A DNA stretch of 40,624 nt. Source: a virus. Taxonomy: Duplodnaviria > Caudoviricetes. Numbering within the stretch: position 1 is the first letter of the stretch; every line of letters starts with the position of its first letter. The stretch is from IMG/VR virus record IMGVR_UViG_3300019877_000003, positions 1 through 40,624 of that record, one strand, 5' to 3'. Shown in pieces: positions 9,558-20,123 of the stretch. The notes under the pieces were generated by a model. It made no database searches, was not told the DNA's origin, and saw nothing but the letters and a program-made list of their open reading frames with translations. Position numbers and translations under genes: made by a program.

Positions 9558-10076
9558 TTATACACTACTTAACCATTCAATAGTAACATATGCAGCGCTA
9601 ATATTTGGAGCTGTTGCACCTAGCACAACCTTAACACTTTGGTTACCACCGGAAGGATTTGGTTCTACTAAAACTGTCATAGATGTCGTTAATAAAGATG
9701 GATCAACATAAGGCAATGGTCTCCAATCTGTTCCCGTATCAAGAGCTGCAACTCCATTTATACTTGTAAATGAAATAAGATTTGGAACGCCAGTGTCTAT
9801 GTTTAAAAATGTTCCAGATGCCATTGCAGGAAATACTATCACTTCTCTAAATGTTTGAAGCGCTCTTGTATATCCATTTAAGTACCATTTTGACCCAGTA
9901 GGAACAATCTTTCTCTCTGGATAGATTCCTATTACTCTATCATTCACCTTAGATGCAATATCTATGTAAGCTTTATCCATCTGAGCAGACATGTCTTTAA
10001 GGTCTGTGTTTGGAAAAAGCCATTGTACTTTAAGATAAGGTTGACGATAGAACTGTGAAAATGGTACTGCTGTCAT
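9558..10076 (-). CDS. Putative tail-associated protein
   Basis: 172 aa, overlaps upstream tail gene (ATGA). Confidence 0.5.
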   Translation of the reverse strand: MTAVPFSQFYRQPYLKVQWLFPNTDLKDMSAQMDKAYIDIASKVNDRVIGIYPERKIVPTGSKWYLNGYTRALQTFREVIVFPAMASGTFLNIDTGVPNLISFTSINGVAALDTGTDWRPLPYVDPSLLTTSMTVLVEPNPSGGNQSVKVVLGATAPNISAAYVTIEWLSSV

Positions 10077-12985
10077 GATGTCATAGGCCCTGGGCTTACA
10101 GTGAATTGCATACCATGTAATACTATTTCATCTTGAGCTAAATCAAAGTCTAACATTTGTTCCTGGCTCAACGTAATACCTATCTGGAAAGTATCTCCTT
10201 GCAAACTTGTATTCACCCTATGCCAGATCTGTTGCATACCTTGTCCAACTAATGTTTGTAGGTTAACATTCGAAGGAGTTAATCCAATATTTGTACTTTC
10301 TAAACATGTATGAAGAATTTGGGTATATATTAATCCGTTAGGTTCACCAGCATATATACGATTATTCCAAGGATCATCTGCATCTTGACTAAGATATATG
10401 TTAAGGGTTACTTGACCACTATACGTTTTATCCATCAGATACTTTTGTACACCAACCCTAACTTGCCTTCCTTGTTCCCAATAAAATGGAAACTGCCTTG
10501 TTTGAAGAAATGGCTGAGATAATCTTCTGAATTCTCCTCCGCCTACATAATCATTAGCTACAAAAAGTGAATTTATAACAAAATTATTGGCATCAATTAT
10601 CTTAAGTACTGAATAAACCTTATTATTCAAAGTAGATGAATTTGTCCCTACACATCCTTCAATATATATAAAATCTGGAGCAGATGTATTAGGATTCAAG
10701 CTTTGTAGGCAATGATTATAAGAGGTAACTTGAGTATTTCCGTTACCATCATTTGCTAATGCTGAAATACTTCCTGATAAACATTCTCCAGTACCAACGC
10801 TTTGAATGATTACATAACCTTGTGGATTACCAGCAATTACCTGTATCTCATAATCTGTTTCTGTACCTGTATTCCATGGATCTGTCCATTGATCCCAACT
10901 AGAATATGGAAGAGTTGCCCATGTTACAGTATCGTTTGCTCTATAGTTTCCTTTGCATGTGTAGTTTTCGTAGAAAACAGCCCATGTATTATCTCTATAA
11001 TTGAAGAAAAATGACTGTGTAGGGAATTTCCAACGACTGTCATCTACAGGATAAGAGAATGTAATCCATTCATTAATATAATCTCGGATTGCATTTACTC
11101 TTTGAGCGCCATTGTTGTTCTTCTGAATCTGGAAAACAGAATTAGGAATATCTAAGTCTATTCTTTGAGCGCTTTGTTGATCCGTTATGCAGATACCAAA
11201 GCTACCAATATCTATCGCACCTTTATCTAGAACAACACTTGAAAAAGTAGATGTAGATGGTAGTTCAGAGTTAATGTTATAGAAAAGAAACGGTTGGAAA
11301 TCGTTTCCAGTATATGCAAATCTGGTTTTTCTTCCATTGCCTCCAAATCCTACTAAAAGAACGTCTTCATTGTTTGTTACTGTTTGGATTGGTTGAGATA
11401 TACCAGCAGGCAAATATCCCCCAAGTCCTGTCTGGTCTACATAATAAGCATTAACTGCAAATGTCTGATTATTTGGAACCAATGAATTATAAAATGGTGT
11501 TCCGTTCCAACTCCAAATAACCGTATCTTGCAATTGTATAGGGGTTGTTGAGGGACTTATTTGAACATACGGACTAAAGAAAAGAAGTCTATCTTTATAA
11601 GGAACGATCGCTAAAGCACCAACTAGATAATATAGATCAGAAGGAAGACCGTTAATAGAAACGGAGGTTCCAGTTAAAGGAGGAGCGAAATTAACCCATC
11701 CAGTTGCTGGTGCTACTGTTGGTATACCTGTTCCACCTGTAGGATCTCCATCATACCAACGAATACCATCTTGACCTGCAACTGAATTAGTTAGAAGTTG
11801 TACTAAACCTGAATTATTTATAGTAGCTGCACTTGTATCAACGGGGATAGTAAATGTTGTGGCTCCTGTCCTTGTTGCTGTAAAGACCAATTGATTAATT
11901 AAAGCAGCATCTGCCCCTGTTATATTATTAAACCAAACTTGATCTCCTGTTTGAACATTATTTGGATTTGTTGTAGTGGTAATAACTGTTGGATTTGCAG
12001 CAGTGATTGCGCTAATTGTATATCCATGAAATCCTGGAACATTGTTGGTAGCCCAGAAAGCACCTGATTGATTTACTGTAGTACTTGGATAATTCGTAGA
12101 CCAAAACTGTTGGTAGTCTTGTCCTGTCCACACAACTGGATTTCCTGTAGTCTTGTAATAACTTACTGAATAAAACGATGCATTTACGGCAACTTGATTG
12201 CATTGATAAGAATAAGTTGTATCAAAAGCTATTAGTAAAGGATAATTTGAAAATGATGTTGATGAAGTAAAATCTCTTTCTCCCATTACAGGAAGACCAG
12301 GAAAATAATCGAAAAATACATATGCTGTTCCAGCACCAGCACCTATTAAAGTAAAAGCACCGGATGCATAATTTATCTGTCCACTTCCTGATGGAGTTCC
12401 TGTAAGAACACCAGTAGAAGAATTATCGGTATAGACATTTCCTTTATATGCAATCGTTATACTTCCTGGAACTAACGAAGCTCCAGAAGTAGCAGAAACA
12501 AAATTGAGTAAATTCCCTATACCATTTCCAGCGCTATTAGTAACTGTTATTGGACCATAATCATATGATTTTTGCAGCGACACTCCAAATGCTATTCCAC
12601 CGCCTGAATATACTCCAAATGCTGTTGAATTAACGTTTATGGTTATAGTAGTAGAACTTACTGCCGTAATGGTATAAGTATTTCCATTCAATTGTGTCAT
12701 TCCTGACACACCACTAATTTGTATTGTCTGACCATTAACGAAAGTATTATTTGCAGTCAAGACGGCAGATGCTGCATTTGTGGCCCCAGTTATATTAGCA
12801 TGAATACTACTTTCAATCTGTCTTTCAAGACGACCAAGTTTAACAGTACCTCTTTTACGCAAAGCACGGCCACGCCAAACATACATATTGAATAGATAGG
12901 TGAATGAGTCATTGTCTTGGTTAAACGCTGTTGTTGCGTCGTTTAAACCTTTCCTGAAGTTACCGATATAGATTTGATCAGGCAT
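10073..12985 (-). CDS. Large tail protein (P22 gp10/T7 tubular B-like position) with inserted E1-FCCH-like beta domains
   Basis: 970 aa, beta-rich; N-terminal GRALRKRGT motif; three IT/ISxxT...GxxxLN...T repeats. Confidence 0.6.
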   Translation of the reverse strand: MPDQIYIGNFRKGLNDATTAFNQDNDSFTYLFNMYVWRGRALRKRGTVKLGRLERQIESSIHANITGATNAASAVLTANNTFVNGQTIQISGVSGMTQLNGNTYTITAVSSTTITINVNSTAFGVYSGGGIAFGVSLQKSYDYGPITVTNSAGNGIGNLLNFVSATSGASLVPGSITIAYKGNVYTDNSSTGVLTGTPSGSGQINYASGAFTLIGAGAGTAYVFFDYFPGLPVMGERDFTSSTSFSNYPLLIAFDTTYSYQCNQVAVNASFYSVSYYKTTGNPVVWTGQDYQQFWSTNYPSTTVNQSGAFWATNNVPGFHGYTISAITAANPTVITTTTNPNNVQTGDQVWFNNITGADAALINQLVFTATRTGATTFTIPVDTSAATINNSGLVQLLTNSVAGQDGIRWYDGDPTGGTGIPTVAPATGWVNFAPPLTGTSVSINGLPSDLYYLVGALAIVPYKDRLLFFSPYVQISPSTTPIQLQDTVIWSWNGTPFYNSLVPNNQTFAVNAYYVDQTGLGGYLPAGISQPIQTVTNNEDVLLVGFGGNGRKTRFAYTGNDFQPFLFYNINSELPSTSTFSSVVLDKGAIDIGSFGICITDQQSAQRIDLDIPNSVFQIQKNNNGAQRVNAIRDYINEWITFSYPVDDSRWKFPTQSFFFNYRDNTWAVFYENYTCKGNYRANDTVTWATLPYSSWDQWTDPWNTGTETDYEIQVIAGNPQGYVIIQSVGTGECLSGSISALANDGNGNTQVTSYNHCLQSLNPNTSAPDFIYIEGCVGTNSSTLNNKVYSVLKIIDANNFVINSLFVANDYVGGGEFRRLSQPFLQTRQFPFYWEQGRQVRVGVQKYLMDKTYSGQVTLNIYLSQDADDPWNNRIYAGEPNGLIYTQILHTCLESTNIGLTPSNVNLQTLVGQGMQQIWHRVNTSLQGDTFQIGITLSQEQMLDFDLAQDEIVLHGMQFTVSPGPMTS

Positions 12986-13684
12986 TTAGTTTCCTATTGC
13001 AAACCAGTAAAAACCAGTATATTGTGAAGAGCCAGAATTGAATCTATAATTAAATGCTGTTTCAGATAAAGACGCTCTATCAATAGATAACGACCCCACA
13101 CCACTTGGAACTGTAGTAGCATATTGAGGTACAGTTAAAACGATAAAACATGTGTTAGGAAAAGGTATTGCTCCCGTTACTCTGTTTTTAAAAGTAACTG
13201 TACCGGCTGCATTTCCCCCTGTAAAAGTTCCACTGGTAGCAGTTGCTTGTCCAGCCCTTCCCCATTGTAGAAGAACTCCTCCGATCCATTGCCAACCATC
13301 TTCATTATCTCCTAAACTGAAACCGCTTAATTGAGAAATTATATTACTTCCAGTTAGGTTAAACAATTGTGTATCTGCTGTTCCTCCAGCTGTATTTGGA
13401 GTATATAGACCTGTTAAAAGTTGATTAATTCCTGAAACAGCAGCCGGTATATTTGCATATGTAGCACCAACTCCTGATCTAGTTAAATTCTGTGATTGTG
13501 AAGCTGAACCAGATGCCATCTGATGAATGACCTTATGATAACCACCATTTGGTATATCAAAACCAATATGATCTTCAGCAATTATTCCATCGATACTCTG
13601 AGTATTTTGAAGCATATCAGGCTGATCATTCTTCGGAGCATTATTGGCATTTGGTACTGAATCAGTGTATGGATATGTAGCCAC
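12986..13684 (-). CDS. Tail protein with gp53-like C-terminal domain
   Basis: GWQWIGGVLLQWG...VTF...FPNTCF...FYWFAIGN signature. Confidence 0.65.
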   Translation of the reverse strand: MATYPYTDSVPNANNAPKNDQPDMLQNTQSIDGIIAEDHIGFDIPNGGYHKVIHQMASGSASQSQNLTRSGVGATYANIPAAVSGINQLLTGLYTPNTAGGTADTQLFNLTGSNIISQLSGFSLGDNEDGWQWIGGVLLQWGRAGQATATSGTFTGGNAAGTVTFKNRVTGAIPFPNTCFIVLTVPQYATTVPSGVGSLSIDRASLSETAFNYRFNSGSSQYTGFYWFAIGN

Positions 13685-13686
13685 TA

Positions 13687-15090
13687 TTAAACTCCTGAAG
13701 AATTATTGTAATTGTGATTTCCTAAAGAATGATTCTGAGAATAGATTGTCTCAGTTCTTGTAGAAGTAAATTGTCTTTGACTTCTTTTCCAAACAAGCGA
13801 CTCTTGCTCTAAAAATATTGGTTGGTAGAACATATATTGTTCTGTATCCATTGTATCTGACAGAATCTTTTGAGCTGCACCTCTCGCAATATATTCTGTC
13901 ATGTAACCAAATGGAATTGCTTGTGATGTACTCAAAAATGCAGCGGGAGTTAAATATGCTTCCATCTCAATGAGATACTGAGTATCTGGGGGAGGCATCA
14001 TTGTAATAATGTTGTTGAAATAAAGAATTGATCTTGGAATTCCTTGTTCAACAAAATAGCACTGAACATTAATAGGAGTTCCGGATGGAATCGGAGAAGG
14101 AAAGTTTATATTTGTAGCCACACCCGTATTGTAATTTATTAAATTTGAAAATGATGTTGCTGTTCCACCTGAAGTATATGCTGTAAAAGAAGTAGAATCG
14201 ACATCTATAGTCACTGTTGTTCCTGAATTACTAACCACAGTGTAATAATTATCGTTAAGTTCAGTCATTCCGTTAACTGCAGTTATCTGAATTGTTTGAC
14301 CTACAACAAAATTACTTGTTATTGTCAGAACAGCTTGTGATGCTTGGGTTATTCCTGTAATTCCAAATGAATTAACATAACCATTCGATGGCTGTTGATT
14401 ACCCAACGGTGCATTACCAGGATACATTAATAATCCATATAAATTTCCATCTGTGTTGCTAGATAAGAATTGTCCGCTATCTGCTACGACAATATTCTGA
14501 CCATTCGATCCTGTTGCAGTGAAATAAACCGCTGAATAAACGCTAGTTGTTGGAACATTCAAGTTTAATGTGGTTCCAAGTATTGGATCGGAAGGTGTTG
14601 ATGGTGGCGTTACACTTGCCATAATACCAGTAATATCTACGTGACCTGGAATGGCAGGAAAGAAGGGTAGATTAAGATTATAATTAGTCCCTCCATTTCC
14701 TGTCCCGACTTGAATTTGCTGTTGAACGTAAGTTGGCCACAGATTATTAAATGATCTCATTTGAGTAGAGAAACCCAATTGAATACCATTCGCTGTACAA
14801 TTACCCGTGAATCCTTGATATACTGGGTAGGAAGCAATGACATTACTTGTAGGCTGCTGAGGACTTGGAGATACTTGAACACTGTAAAGAGGCATGTTAT
14901 ATTGATCAACACCCGGAGTGGTCTGAAACTGATATTTGGTTTTGAAATCAAATAACTGCATCCTAGCATCGATGTCTGATATCCAAAATCTATTGATGTA
15001 ATCAATGATTAGATTATCGGTTAATACGATATTAGATGGAGTTTTGACTATCCTACGGATGTATGTGATGACATCATTCAATATAAACAT
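13687..15090 (-). CDS. Head-tail adaptor/tail tubular A-like protein with FCCH-like insertion
   Basis: Helical N- and C-termini (VITYIRRIV...IIDYINRF; EYIARGAAQKIL) flanking beta-rich insert. Confidence 0.55.
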   Translation of the reverse strand: MFILNDVITYIRRIVKTPSNIVLTDNLIIDYINRFWISDIDARMQLFDFKTKYQFQTTPGVDQYNMPLYSVQVSPSPQQPTSNVIASYPVYQGFTGNCTANGIQLGFSTQMRSFNNLWPTYVQQQIQVGTGNGGTNYNLNLPFFPAIPGHVDITGIMASVTPPSTPSDPILGTTLNLNVPTTSVYSAVYFTATGSNGQNIVVADSGQFLSSNTDGNLYGLLMYPGNAPLGNQQPSNGYVNSFGITGITQASQAVLTITSNFVVGQTIQITAVNGMTELNDNYYTVVSNSGTTVTIDVDSTSFTAYTSGGTATSFSNLINYNTGVATNINFPSPIPSGTPINVQCYFVEQGIPRSILYFNNIITMMPPPDTQYLIEMEAYLTPAAFLSTSQAIPFGYMTEYIARGAAQKILSDTMDTEQYMFYQPIFLEQESLVWKRSQRQFTSTRTETIYSQNHSLGNHNYNNSSGV

Positions 15091-15266
15091 TACTTTTTAC
15101 CAACCTTAAGACCTTTTTTTCGAGCTTCTGAAAGGGCAATTGCAATCCCTTGCTTTGGATTAGTTACTAATGGGCCTTTTTTTGAACCACTATGTAATTT
15201 TCCTTCTTTCATTTCATGCATTACTTTACCAATTTTCTTTTCTGCTTTCTTGGATTCTTTAGCCAT
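15090..15266 (-). CDS. DUF6496-like small basic protein, 58 aa
   Basis: KIGKVMHEMKEGKLHSGSKKGPLVTNPKQGIAIALSEARK signature; not in ORF track; TAATG-coupled. Confidence 0.75.
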   Translation of the reverse strand: MAKESKKAEKKIGKVMHEMKEGKLHSGSKKGPLVTNPKQGIAIALSEARKKGLKVGKK

Positions 15267-15367
15267 TACTTTGCCTTTTTCTTCATGTCTTTTGTAGCCA
15301 TTTTTTCTTTAACAGCTTCGACCATTACTTTTTTCTTTTCTTTTTTATGTTCTTTATTGCCTTTCAT
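15266..15367 (-). CDS. Small Lys-rich protein, 33 aa
   Basis: MKGNKEHKKEKKKVMVEAVKEKMATKDMKKKAK; SD GAGG; coupled to next gene. Confidence 0.5.
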   Translation of the reverse strand: MKGNKEHKKEKKKVMVEAVKEKMATKDMKKKAK

Positions 15368-15375
15368 AATTTCCT

Positions 15376-15987
15376 CTAAAAGTTAGTTTTTCCCATGAAG
15401 ATCGATTTTTGTTCTATTGCTGGATATGCATCCAATCTTTGAACTGCTGTATCTACTGCCATAGTTCCATAGTATTGTCCCATTTGGTCAGAACCTGCGT
15501 TAGTAGTATCCTTCATAACTAGTTTATGATACTTACTACCCTTGATTCTTTCAGCTACCATACGTGGCGCCCAAACTGGTTTATTTACTGGAACTACCCA
15601 GCTTTCGACATTCGTTCCCGGGAACTTTTTTAAATCAAATTCAATTGATTCGCCAATGATTTCATTGTTTTGAGCAACAAATCTTACGTACTCTTTTTGG
15701 AACTCATATTCAGCTCTAAACTTCTCATTGAACTTCTCTCTTTCTCCTGTTTTTGGGTTAACTCCAGGAGGAAAAGATCTCTTTGGCTTTAAATAAATAT
15801 CTTTAGATTTTTCTAGTTCATTTTGAGATAATTTAGTTTGTTGATCGACTTCTTTAGTAGGGGCTTGATTCATTCTATCTAATGTCATAGATTTAACTTC
15901 TGAATCAAACTTATCAAATTGATCAATTGCTTTATCGAGTTCTCTTTGACCTTCGCTATTTACTTTTGGTCTTTTGTTTTCTGTCAT
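15376..15987 (-). CDS. Hypothetical protein (head assembly region)
   Basis: 203 aa ORF with SD GAGGT. Confidence 0.6.
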   Translation of the reverse strand: MTENKRPKVNSEGQRELDKAIDQFDKFDSEVKSMTLDRMNQAPTKEVDQQTKLSQNELEKSKDIYLKPKRSFPPGVNPKTGEREKFNEKFRAEYEFQKEYVRFVAQNNEIIGESIEFDLKKFPGTNVESWVVPVNKPVWAPRMVAERIKGSKYHKLVMKDTTNAGSDQMGQYYGTMAVDTAVQRLDAYPAIEQKSIFMGKTNF

Positions 15988-15996
15988 AAATTACCT

Positions 15997-16416
15997 CTAT
16001 GAAATGTTAATGAAGCTACCCGGGATATACGTTCCATTGTTCGTTCTCCCTTTATTTATGGCTCCTGTATTTATATCCCCAATGGCCAATATTTGGGGTT
16101 GTGTTGTAGCTGATGATGTTTGAAATGCATCTACATTTCTGGATGAGTCTATATCTAATACAACTTGAGTAGTTGAGGGTATTGATATTACAAATCCAGT
16201 CTTTTCGTTTAGTTGTCTACATCCGTTAGTTGGAGGGATGATTAACCTACATTCTTGTCCTATCACATAATCTTGGTTAGCTGTTGTTGTTACTGTAGTC
16301 GTTTGACCAAGTGTTATATTGGATATGAAAAAGAACTTAGGTTGGTAATATTCTGTATGAATTGGCACGTTATTATAAGCTGCTATTGGACCAACGTAAG
16401 GATATGGAAATGCCAT
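15997..16416 (-). CDS. Virion protein with one FCCH-like domain
   Basis: Paralogous to second domain of 16500-17615 (GQExxxxIP...QLN...AxGDxNTG). Confidence 0.6.
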   Translation of the reverse strand: MAFPYPYVGPIAAYNNVPIHTEYYQPKFFFISNITLGQTTTVTTTANQDYVIGQECRLIIPPTNGCRQLNEKTGFVISIPSTTQVVLDIDSSRNVDAFQTSSATTQPQILAIGDINTGAINKGRTNNGTYIPGSFINIS

Positions 16417-16443
16417 CTTTTACCTATTTATTTCTGAAAAACT

Positions 16444-16466
16444 CAATGTAAATCCGGCTTTACATT
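16444..16466. promoter_or_regulatory. 23-bp quasi-palindrome, copy 1 (putative operator)
   Basis: CAATGTAAATCCGGCTTTACATT; exact inverted copy at 19948-19970. Confidence 0.5.
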
Positions 16467-16493
16467 CAAAGGGTGGGATTTTATCCCCACCCT
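16467..16493 (-). terminator. Hairpin/terminator after capsid operon
   Basis: AGGGTGGG-8nt-CCCACCCT followed by a short T run. Confidence 0.5.
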
Positions 16494-16499
16494 AAATTA

Positions 16500-17615
16500 T
16501 CAATTCACAGACAAATCAGGCAACATAGCTTCATAGTATATGACTTGAGCAGCTGTCGGAGCTACTGTCGCACCAAAAATGAAACCTTGGCTTGTGTTAT
16601 TCACATAAGCACCCTGAATTGCTGGTCCATTAATTGTAGGTACCTGAGTTGTACCAAATGGTACAGCATAAGGAGAAGGATACAAATTGGAACCTGCACT
16701 AATCTGAACACCACCAGTATTAACATCACCAACCGCAACCATCTGAGGAAATTGCTCTCCGGGGAATGATGCAAATGCTTGGTTGCTGTTAAATGCTGTG
16801 TATCCAGTAGAGTTAATATTAACTACTACAGTGTTATAATCCGTTACCGCGACGACATATCCATAGATCGGAGATCCAGGAATAATGACGTTAGGTAATG
16901 AATTCAATTGGTATGTACCCCAAATAGTTGGAATACGGAAAGCAACTTCTTGACCAACAACTAGATTGTGAGCTGATGTTGTATCAATTGTTGTTGTTGT
17001 TCCAGTTGTAATTGCACTGATTACCGAAGTACCAGGAAAATATAAACTTGGATACAACACTTTCTTTACCAATGCGCCAGATGGAGAACCACTCAATGCA
17101 GTATAACCTGATTGGTTTGTATTCCAAGGAATTGTGAATGTATTAGCATCAACTACAGTAACAGTAAATGGCATTCCTGCAATTTGCTGCATACCAGTCG
17201 TTGTTGACTGATACAATCCTTGAAACACTACCACATCTCCACTAACCAATCCGTGAGCAGTTGCTACAACAGAAGCAGGGTTTGCTTTTGAAATAGAAAC
17301 AACTTGAACGGTTGGTCCATATTGAAGTGATAATCCTGCTGCATAAGTGCTAATACCACCACCAAGAACACTCGTAGTAGTAGCAGCAACCTGAGCCAAT
17401 GTTCCTGCTGTAACTACATCATAAACTCCAGCGCCTTGACCCATTGAAACATCCCAATACCCCTTCGTTACATATCCAGTTGCACCACCAGATGTCGAAG
17501 CTGTAAAGTTCCACCATTTTACCGTTTGCGGTTGAAAAGGTAGATTAATTGGAGCTGTTCCCCCCCCTGTCAAAGTGGTTACGTGACCTTTCGCGATTCT
17601 AGAATATTCAGCCAT
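16500..17615 (-). CDS. Putative capsid decoration protein with two FCCH-like domains
   Basis: Directly downstream of MCP, strong SD AGGAGG, beta-rich repeats. Confidence 0.6.
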   Translation of the reverse strand: MAEYSRIAKGHVTTLTGGGTAPINLPFQPQTVKWWNFTASTSGGATGYVTKGYWDVSMGQGAGVYDVVTAGTLAQVAATTTSVLGGGISTYAAGLSLQYGPTVQVVSISKANPASVVATAHGLVSGDVVVFQGLYQSTTTGMQQIAGMPFTVTVVDANTFTIPWNTNQSGYTALSGSPSGALVKKVLYPSLYFPGTSVISAITTGTTTTIDTTSAHNLVVGQEVAFRIPTIWGTYQLNSLPNVIIPGSPIYGYVVAVTDYNTVVVNINSTGYTAFNSNQAFASFPGEQFPQMVAVGDVNTGGVQISAGSNLYPSPYAVPFGTTQVPTINGPAIQGAYVNNTSQGFIFGATVAPTAAQVIYYEAMLPDLSVN

Positions 17616-17625
17616 AATACGCCTC

Positions 17626-19786
17626 CTATGGGTTTAAGTTCGCTAAGCGCGTACATAATAGGTTTCGGATCGCTGTATCTTGCGTAATCGCTTGAGCTTG
17701 GGCAAACTTAACTGCCAAAGTAGCATTCTGTGCAAGCATTCCAGAATAATAAGGGTCACGGTAAATCAAGTTCATGGAATATCCATCTTGATTAATGTGA
17801 GTTATTGCTTGTTTACCCAACACGGTGTTGTAGTAAACGTCATTACCATTAGCACTAGCACCACGAGCTACAGGAGCCTCAGAGCTTGTCAAGATACGGG
17901 TGTTAAATACAGAACCGTATTCTGATGGAAGAGCTGATGCATTTGTAGGATAGTTCCACTGAGACAAGAAACCGCTTCCTGTTAGGGAATCGAAGTCTGT
18001 CTGAAGCTCTGTTGAACTCAACATGAAATATGCTGAACGGACAGGGCCTGTTCCGAATCTATCCATACCTTCAATACCTGACATAAATTTGTAGGCATTG
18101 TTAGTATCCAAAGTCGTAGCAACTAAACTAAAATCGGATACACCGAGGTTAGTTGGATTGTCCTATCTGTTACTTGTTGACCTGATTTCTCAGGCGGGCC
18201 AAATCTTCTCAGCTGGCCTCACTATGTCTCCATAGTGTTCAGAGCACCGCATCCTCTTTCGAGGTCTTCTCGCTTGCTGCGTTCAGGCTGTTTTGATTTA
18301 ACTTTATCGATTATTTTATCGATTTGTTCTAGATTTCCATAATAAGCTTGTTCGTTAACCCACATGTTTCTATACCATATGGAACCAAACGGTCTTTTAT
18401 CTAAATCTATCATCACTTGCCCCTTGTTGTCCGTCTGCTTCATGCAGCGAGGAGTTCCAAGTCTATCAGAGAAGATTTTACAACGGCAACAAATCTACCG
18501 TTGCTTCCACCACCAGCGTTAATTTCGCTAGCTGCGGAGACGATGTAATCGCGTAAAATTAACAATCTGTTACTTTTGTGACCTACCTATTGTAGGCGGG
18601 AAAACCTCTTCGGATTTTCCTCTCGGATTTCATTTATAGTCCGAGATCAGACTTTCGCATCTCTATTTCTAGAGTCCAACCGCTAAGTCGTTCAGCCTAG
18701 ACATTTAATTAGTCTTATGCAACAATACACACGCATCTACACACATAACATAGGAGGTGAAAGATGCCCGTTATTCCCTATGAGAAGATTATTTATGATC
18801 CTCTCAAGCTTGCATATCTTGCTGGAATAGTTGACGGAGAAGGTTCTCTTTGTATTTATCGAGTTAATCCCGCGAAGTATAACCGATATCAAAGCCCTAA
18901 CTTTCGTTCCGTTCTTAATATTTCCAACACTAAGAAAGAACTTTTTGACTGGATTGAAGAAAATTTTGGTAATCTCAATAAGTCTAAAAAGCATCGTCGA
19001 TCCATTTTTAAGAAAAACTCGACTCATGAAAGATGGATTTATGAGTGGGTTATTCAAGGTCACCGATTGGTCGATATTTGTACTCAACTTTTGCCTTACC
19101 TTGTTCTTAAAAAAAGACAGGCTGAGTTGATTCTCGAATTTCGTAAGACCTACGAAAACCAAAAAGGATTTGGTGCTCATACACCACTGGACATTGATAC
19201 AATCTCTATTAGAGAAGATATCAGAGTCGAAATGTGTAGACTTAATGCTAAAGGTTTTCTTAAAGCTGAATTCGAACATTTTTCTCCTAATTAAACCCTT
19301 GGCCCTTGTTGCCCTCCTGATTTATCAGTGAGGGTTTCCAAGTCAATCAGGTTAGATTTATCGAGGACTTAATCTTAATCCTCGGCTTGGCGCATCGCAA
19401 CAGCTAATCTTTCAGAAACCCAGGCGAGAACTCCCTCCTGATCCTGCAAGATAACTTGCTCGTTGATTCTTAAGAGCTTATGCCGCCATCAAGCATGCTG
19501 CACAATCATAAATGCAGCCTGTTCCAAAAAACGCCATCTGCGCATCAATAATGTCACGCTGTGGCACTTGAGCTGGAGGATCAATCCCCGAGTTACCAAG
19601 TTGAATAGTAGGCGGCTGTAAAGCACGCGGTCTCATAAAGCGACAAGTAGTTCCGCCGTTTGCAGGCATGGAAACTTTGTCACAAACTGTAATGTAATTC
19701 ATTGTTGGGGTAGGCACATAGAGCATTGCAGGCGCAAGCGACTGTAATATCATTGGGCCTAGATTCCCAGTATTTGTGATTTGCAC
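17626..19786 (-). CDS. Major capsid protein (N4-gp56 family), spliced: exons 19786-19512, 19468-19378, 18562-18497, 18162-17626 = 969 nt, 322 aa
   Basis: Joined exons give a continuous frame ...FFGTGCI/INEQVILQDQEGVLAWVSERLAVAMRQAED/LILRDYIVSAASEINAGGGSNG/DNPTNLG...SEYGSVFNTRILTS...; GTG start with SD GAGGT; each junction has U at the exon end and G at the intron end. Confidence 0.9.
18163..18496 (-). mobile_element. Group I intron 3 of MCP (334 nt)
   Basis: P1 CAACGGU/GCCGUUG with U-G; P10 UUGUU/GACAA; P3 UCUUCUC/GAGAAGA; P7 G(C)AGCA/UGCUC; P8 CCUC-GAAA-GAGG; ends UAACAGAUAG. Confidence 0.88.
18698..18726 (+). promoter_or_regulatory. Putative sigma70-type promoter for the endonuclease
   Basis: TAGACA-17 bp-AACAAT with TGn extension; SD AGGAGGTGA at 18752-18760. 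Confidence 0.4.
18764..19294 (+). CDS. LAGLIDADG homing endonuclease (single motif), antisense to host intron
   Basis: LAYLAGIVDGEGSL motif; LLPYLVLKKRQAELILEF C-terminal motif; strong SD. Confidence 0.92.
   Translation: MPVIPYEKIIYDPLKLAYLAGIVDGEGSLCIYRVNPAKYNRYQSPNFRSVLNISNTKKELFDWIEENFGNLNKSKKHRRSIFKKNSTHERWIYEWVIQGHRLVDICTQLLPYLVLKKRQAELILEFRKTYENQKGFGAHTPLDIDTISIREDIRVEMCRLNAKGFLKAEFEHFSPN
19469..19511 (-). mobile_element. 43-nt core-less group I-like mini-intron 1 of MCP
   Basis: UUAUGAUUGUGCAGCAUGCUUGAUGGCGGCAUAAGCUCUUAAG; P1 GCUGCAU/GUGCAGC with U-G, P10 UGAUU/AAUCA, terminal G; removal restores frame. Confidence 0.75.
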
Positions 19787-19947: not shown

Positions 19948-19970
19948 AATGTAAAGCCGGATTTACATTG
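19948..19970. promoter_or_regulatory. 23-bp quasi-palindrome, copy 2
   Basis: Exact reverse complement of 16444-16466; abuts tRNA-Thr 3' end. Confidence 0.5.
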
Positions 19971-20041
19971 CTTGAAGTAGGAATTGAACCCACAACCGTC
20001 CGATTACAAATCGGATGCTCTACCAATTGAGCTATTCAAGC
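19969..20041 (-). tRNA. trnT: tRNA-Thr(TGT)
   Basis: Acceptor GCTTGAA/TTCAAGC, anticodon arm TCCGA-TTTGTAA-TCGGA, T loop TTCAATT; no encoded CCA. Confidence 0.92.
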
Positions 20042-20043
20042 CT

Positions 20044-20116
20044 CTCCGTCTGTAGGATTCGAACCTACGGCCTATTCATTAACAGTGAATTGCTACTACC
20101 GCTGAGCTAAGACGGA
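20044..20116 (-). tRNA. trnN: tRNA-Asn(GTT)
   Basis: Acceptor TCCGTCT/AGACGGA, anticodon arm ATTCA-CTGTTAA-TGAAT, T loop TTCGAAT; discriminator G. Confidence 0.9.
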
Positions 20117-20123
20117 ATTTGTA

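Follow-up and report, generated by a model that had tools for sequence, protein, structure and literature searches.

Core-less group I-type introns in a phage capsid gene and their probable excision by a tethered neighbouring intron

Group I introns of bacteriophages, as portrayed in excerpts of two accounts (PMC3984707, PMC11878797), carry a P1 helix with a U·G pair, a P10 pairing, a terminal G and an early in-frame stop, can occur several to a gene and may hold endonuclease ORFs in their loops. The 43-nt insert described here shares these features of phage group I introns and their genes, and differs in lacking the P3-P9 core and P9.0 and in having a predicted tether to the P1 of its neighbour. 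In vitro, a group I core can excise an internal segment ending in G, as partial accounts of trans excision-splicing (PMC2532722) and of spliceozymes (PMC4094466) describe; there, too, the flanks are joined and P10 matters in the second step, and in trans excision-splicing the terminal G of the ribozyme can be the nucleophile (PMC2532722). These systems, so far as those accounts go, were engineered, with the guide provided by the ribozyme, whereas the insert would bring its own guide, recruit a core through an exon helix, and is natural and apparently under selection. The PaSSU intron of Phialophora and its kin in fungal rDNA resemble it in being short (63-75 nt) and in having P1, P10 and a pairing of the intron's middle part with the 3' exon, but as excerpted (PMC3160393) they possess their own P7, end in U, splice independently of a neighbour, lie in rRNA and lack endonucleases; the insert ends in G, and its relatives of 29-33 nt have no room for P7. 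Collaborative or trans homing in phages, in the part of the source seen (PMC3984707), offers a parallel in which an endonuclease and an intron lacking an ORF share the work. However, there the endonuclease is free-standing and splicing autonomous, while here the endonuclease can sit in the core-less intron itself and the function that appears to be borrowed is splicing. No description of a natural case was found in the literature searched, which consisted mostly of open-access texts.

The DNA analysed, hereafter the window, is the whole 40,624-nt stretch of the virus record IMGVR_UViG_3300019877_000003. It represents a phage genome with portal, terminase and, on the minus strand, a major capsid gene of the N4-gp56 type, a family name taken from the source annotation of an intronless relative. 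Four exons of this gene are separated by three inserts of 43, 815 and 334 nt. Exon 1 (19512-19786; 91-99% identity among the 80 loci listed) is followed by the 43-nt core-less intron (19469-19511), the 91-nt exon 2 (19378-19468), the 815-nt intron 2 (18563-19377), the 66-nt exon 3 (18497-18562), the 334-nt intron 3 (18163-18496) and exon 4 (17626-18162), all on the minus strand. Exon 4 matches phrog_1357, major head protein (E 2e-9); Pfam gave no match for exons 1 and 4, and the locus had no match among 50,697 GenBank phages. Between a likely scaffold gene and the capsid gene lie genes for tRNA-Asn and tRNA-Thr (19969-20117, minus strand), and the PF16190 (E1_FCCH) repeat recurs in three proteins of the structural region (10076-17615).

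Excising positions 19511-19469 restores the capsid frame as G-C-I-I-N-E-Q-V, the reading found in intronless relatives. A preliminary description, made from the letters alone, had held that these 43 nt, with an in-frame TAA (19480-19478), break the capsid frame, and that they keep the splice-site elements of a group I intron around a missing P3-P8 core; its coordinates and this part of its account stand. The last 7 nt of exon 1 (19518-19512) form the 5' strand of a 7-bp P1 with 19503-19497, closed by a U·G pair and predicted with pair probabilities of 0.94-1.0. An internal guide (19497-19508, minus strand) combines this P1 3' strand with the P10 strand (19508-19504), which pairs with the first bases of exon 2 (19468-19464), and the last base of the insert is G. 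The exact U|...G boundary follows from the P1/P10 geometry, since shifting both ends by one base also gives Ile-Ile. Only 28 nt follow P1, and the catalytic core P3-P8 with the G site of P7 is absent: a core model of the family, run over the whole window, finds nothing in the insert, its matches being introns 2 and 3 and a weak 9-bit match at 13154-13197 (E 0.33). P9.0 is likewise lacking; of the 56 core-less introns, only two show a motif resembling the family's P9.0 tail, and the idea that the UAA of the insert might stand in for P9.0 was considered and rejected. The small hairpin GCUU/AAGC that had been proposed did not survive, with a pair probability of 0.01 in context, and a local P2 hairpin reached only 0.02.

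Collapse of a longer intron during assembly could have produced such an insert. It is excluded because contigs from three runs (X3, X6 and X13) span the insert without gaps, that from X13 belonging to a diverged strain, which shows 35 differences within 1.3 kb. None of the listed runs containing the locus was RNA, and two runs labelled as perhaps RNA, though probably DNA, gave contigs of distant relatives only, whose joints carry no information on splicing. On the evidence of the sequences, the insert is real and under selection rather than an artefact.

A total of 359 loci, including the window, were gathered, besides one locus identical to the window that was left out. Capsid anchors were present in 349, the 10 without them being dropped; 191 were distinct, 188 remained after clustering, and 181 were kept once seven distant or fragmented loci had been removed, together with six mis-split intron calls. 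Introns of relatives were called with a spliced aligner that enforced the U|...G boundary, and the insert site of the window is enriched in the sample through targeted scans. Ten loci from genome bins carry mixed labels, one of them Chlamydiia. Among the 181 loci, 56 core-less introns occupy four sites of the capsid gene: 26 at the site of the window, 15 after F-F-G, 14 after Q-E-G and one after R-L-A. From the end of P1 to the terminal G they measure 15-29 nt, a distance that is no less than 150 nt in full introns; this length split sets aside two full introns with false P1 picks (83, 118), and for it the P1 of one core-less intron was reassigned by hand.

At the site of the window, 25 further inserts of 32-44 nt speak against a chance origin. 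All 26 rows have P1 with its U·G pair, P1 is fully paired (100%) and P10 is paired in 93.8% of cells. Compensatory changes are few, with one pair in P1 (A-U/G-C, 2 rows) and one in P10 (G-C/A-U, 2 rows). P10 reaches at least 4 bp in 55 of the 56 core-less introns versus 51 of 89 ordinary introns, and in 46 of 46 cases it matches its own 3' exon more closely than the exon that follows the partner. On a tree of the 3' half of the capsid gene, carriers at this site are scattered (14 changes versus 15.2 when shuffled), although bootstrap support is not fully settled and recombination is likely.

Presence of a core-less intron is bound to that of a full one. The next intron is full in all 54 cases where it is visible (46 seen whole, eight by their start only), the contig ending in the other two, and the core-less intron is upstream in 54 of 54. 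Of 136 complete genes, 70 are intronless, 26 have full introns only, 40 have both kinds and a core-less intron by itself is found in none; where the core-less intron is absent, no more than 11 of 96 genes have a full intron in the corresponding stretch. Three genes carry two core-less introns, each with a separate full partner. Two untagged full introns stand at usual partner sites with no core-less intron upstream (L289, after R-Q-A; L318, after A-E-D), and these are possibly former partners.

The partners are complete ribozymes by their sequence. Rfam group I models gave no match to any of the three inserts, at the gathering score or up to E 10, and Rfam on the window returned two tRNAs only. 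For a family core model, 37 short full introns from relatives were used; the model comprises P3, P4, P5, P6, P7, in which a G-C pair never varies, and a P9.0 of one pair, which is A-U instead of G-C in 8 of the 37. P3, P4, P6, P7 and P9.0 covary in this set, with 96.4% of cells paired, a value reached by none of 500 shuffles. The model finds both halves of introns 2 and 3 (E 9e-22 and 2e-19), and both carry the covarying core with the P7 G-C pair. In intron 2, the likely partner ribozyme, the P1 5' strand is the end of exon 2 (19384-19378), the P1 3' strand 19368-19362, and the core halves lie at about 19361-19290 and 18700-18563 (minus strand). Antisense within it (18764-19294, plus strand) is a LAGLIDADG-like endonuclease ORF of 176 aa that matches PF00961 below the cut-off (E 0.01) and phrog_5046 at E 6e-25, for which the PHROG label reads HNH. 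A 73-aa ORF (18222-18443, minus strand) overlaps the P6 loop and core of intron 3, and small unrelated ORFs occupy this P6-loop position in many relatives. One partner, the 661-nt intron after A-E-D in L283, has a long insert between P7 and its 3' domain.

Folding suggests how the two introns may be connected. The segment behind the mini-intron P1 (19480-19494, minus strand) is predicted to pair with exon bases just ahead of the P1 of the partner (19395-19385 in exon 2). The 15 nt before the partner P1 rank in the top 5% of gene windows in 52 of 54 cases and in the top 1% in 41 of 54, the two outside the top 5% being L220 and L247; the pairing is better than shuffles in 53 of 54 and better than 68 intronless alleles on average in 51 of 54. 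In each of 56 comparisons with the gene's other full introns it favours the next intron, the energies in the window being -13.9 kcal/mol for intron 2 and -8.6 kcal/mol for intron 3. In 51 of 54 cases the best stem stops 7-10 nt short of the partner splice site, and the pairing is kept across 12 combinations of mini-intron and partner site, seven partner sites and intervening exons of 21-168 nt. G-C/A-U swaps in it follow synonymous Arg codons, and the mini-introns of L247 and L312 have a common 3' part and differ where their partners differ. Thus the tether, as predicted from the sequences, follows the position of the partner. In the window it is weaker than in relatives, with one A·C mismatch, pair probabilities of 0.26-0.68 and a rank in the top 1.7% of windows. 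A different tether had been suggested before, to the 5' junction of intron 2; it beats shuffles in only 2 of 54 cases (window p=0.08) and is abandoned.

A further feature, missed by the preliminary description, is the peptide made when the intron is left in place. The unspliced insert would yield a 102-aa product ending Leu-Met-Ala-Ala at the TAA, the end of this tail being encoded within the 5' strand of the tether. An Ala-Ala-stop closes the read-through frame in 50 of the 56 core-less introns (four of the other six end Val-Ala) and in 66 of 73 ordinary introns past codon 35, intron 3 with its L-L-A-A-stop among them, against 0 of 18 introns before codon 35 and 0 of 386 other frames. Ordinary introns encode the tail inside P5 or P6, about 18-30 codons into the ribozyme (18496-18434 in the window, and likewise in most capsid introns of relatives). 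In ten cases (L246, L247, L248, L250, L262, L291, L305, L312, L316 and L317) it is the following exon, read out of its own frame, that supplies the end of the tail (R-L-A-A-stop or the like), an arrangement that demands particular synonymous codons. The underlying motif GCNGCRTAA was also considered as a promoter or tertiary contact; this was rejected, the motif being Ala-Ala-stop. An in-frame C-terminal Ala-Ala is shared with the ssrA degron, of which it is the element that matters most to ClpXP, according to the part of the source seen (PMC7652416). The ssrA tag is added by tmRNA, whereas here the Ala-Ala is hard-coded in the intron read-through, and the truncated capsid protein that carries it would be destined for proteolysis by Clp. 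No account of intron-encoded degrons was found in the literature, as judged by titles.

Partner introns stand apart in this respect. Only 4 of 54 end in Ala-Ala-stop, and intron 2 itself stops at once (A-E-D-stop, no tag), whereas 37 of 40 ordinary introns merely located behind another intron keep the tail. Partner status is confounded with site for both tags and guide energies, so p-values overstate independence; compared by partner status within shared sites, tag counts are 1/8 versus 1/3, 3/29 versus 0/1 and 0/1 versus 5/5. The loss of the tag from partners suggests that RNA from which the mini-intron has gone while the partner is still present is seldom translated, and the contrasting pattern in core-less and partner introns indicates that the two splicing events are tied together.

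Some core-less introns may also be mobile in their own right. Five at the Q-E-G site, 946-975 nt long (L147:4573-5546, L160:4573-5547, L231:3732-4684, L268:4855-5800 and L302:6281-7237), have a LAGLIDADG ORF with two motifs inside the P1 loop, and in five of five PF00961 scores above the cut-off. Guide and tether lie at their 3' end, a full intron is next in each, and the core model found no core in them, apart from a single 28-nt match at E 0.4. We infer from these sequences that this endonuclease-bearing form moves. A sixth long core-less intron (L314:3830-4154, 325 nt) has in its P1 loop an ORF of 74 aa whose start is hydrophobic and which has no Pfam match. In L111, L318 and L130, the P1 loop of a full intron contains a LAGLIDADG-like ORF, and introns of this type are a possible source of the endonuclease-bearing core-less form.

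Taken together, the insert is a core-less group I-type intron that is most likely excised by the tethered next intron, intron 2 and not intron 3. An intron needing a neighbouring core had been proposed at the outset; co-occurrence and the compensatory changes in P1 and P10 speak for it, its original hairpin and tether have fallen away, and the earlier choice between introns 2 and 3 is narrowed to intron 2 by the tether found here. As the tether adjoins the partner P1, the mini-intron P1 would branch 1-2 nt from the attachment of the core and could swap into its docking site, and a strong P10 may substitute for the absent P9.0 in the choice of the 3' splice site. In the order that is somewhat favoured, and that we would give about an even chance, intron 2 would self-splice first and remain on the joined exons through its guide sequence, then cut out the mini-intron in the manner of trans excision-splicing, the nucleophile being either its own terminal G or free GTP. 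This order is preferred on account of the tag loss in partners, its avoidance of exon skipping, the likeness to trans excision-splicing and a stronger pairing of partner guides with joined exons (-17.4 versus -14.4 kcal/mol, p 2e-6, a comparison confounded with site); no difference between partners and other introns appears in P10 length alone (p 0.37).

The reverse order, which forms part of the same overall reading, appears somewhat less probable. Here the core of the still-attached intron 2 would take the series of mini-intron P1, tether and partner P1 in the manner of a P1-P2-P2.1 domain, remove the mini-intron with free GTP, and then self-splice at once. A three-helix series of this sort is reminiscent of the 5' domain in larger group I introns. 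The constant upstream position of the core-less intron is what co-transcriptional folding would favour, and the preference of P10 for its own exon would guard against exon skipping. However, a state with the mini-intron gone and the partner present would then be obligatory, yet partners mostly lack the Ala-Ala tail, and the P9.0-anchored G of the partner would compete and lead to skipping of exon 2. Exon skipping is known in phage genes with several introns, in the part of the source seen (PMC11878797); as the main route here it is rejected.

It is improbable that any excised group I intron, be it intron 3 or one of the host, docks the mini-intron P1 freely in trans, the linkage to intron 2 reflecting only joint transfer by homing. 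Engineered ribozymes do remove introns in trans, according to partial accounts (PMC4094466, PMC2532722), and the scattered carriers indicate that mini-intron and partner move as a block. Free action of this kind leaves unexplained why the tether is retargeted to seven partner sites, why it prefers the next intron throughout, why each mini-intron has one partner and why the tag is lost specifically from partners.

Removal by a protein nuclease and a ligase, the helices serving as recognition elements, is quite unlikely. Small protein-spliced introns exist in archaea, and an insert devoid of catalytic RNA would suit such a route, but U·G, P10 and terminal G belong to group I chemistry, and a tethered full intron is always next. 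Slightly less credible still is that the insert is never spliced. Ribosomal bypass is rejected, as take-off and landing codons match in none of the 56 and the lengths are spread over all three frames; so is a dead gene, as downstream exons are conserved like those of intronless genes (0.916 versus 0.920), the window at 0.97. Least credible is self-splicing aided by exon structure, after the model of the 67-nt PaSSU intron, whose type keeps P1, P10 and a 3' exon pairing in the excerpt seen (PMC3160393): the insert depends strictly on its neighbour, and P7 does not fit beside P1 and tether because some inserts have only 29-33 nt.

Viewed more broadly, the evidence is evenly poised on whether these introns form a natural class of mobile, non-autonomous splice-site cassettes that recruit the core of a neighbour through a re-programmable exon tether, are excised in its second turnover, can bring their own endonuclease, and carry a tag that makes that of the partner redundant. 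If so, they would constitute a minimal natural "spliceosome by RNA", with the catalyst separate from the substrate intron and a single RNA enzyme removing two introns. A split between core and splice-site signals is the step presumed to underlie spliceosomal introns, and for group I it has so far been achieved only by engineering, as far as the excerpted sources go (PMC4094466, PMC2532722). The 56 natural variants offer a design rule, namely P1, 1-2 nt, a tether against the partner P1, and a strong P10. Moreover, core-less introns escape searches based on the core, and the capsid genes that hold them look like pseudogenes. Finally, for the phages themselves, a selfish intron would have become indispensable for the production of the capsid.
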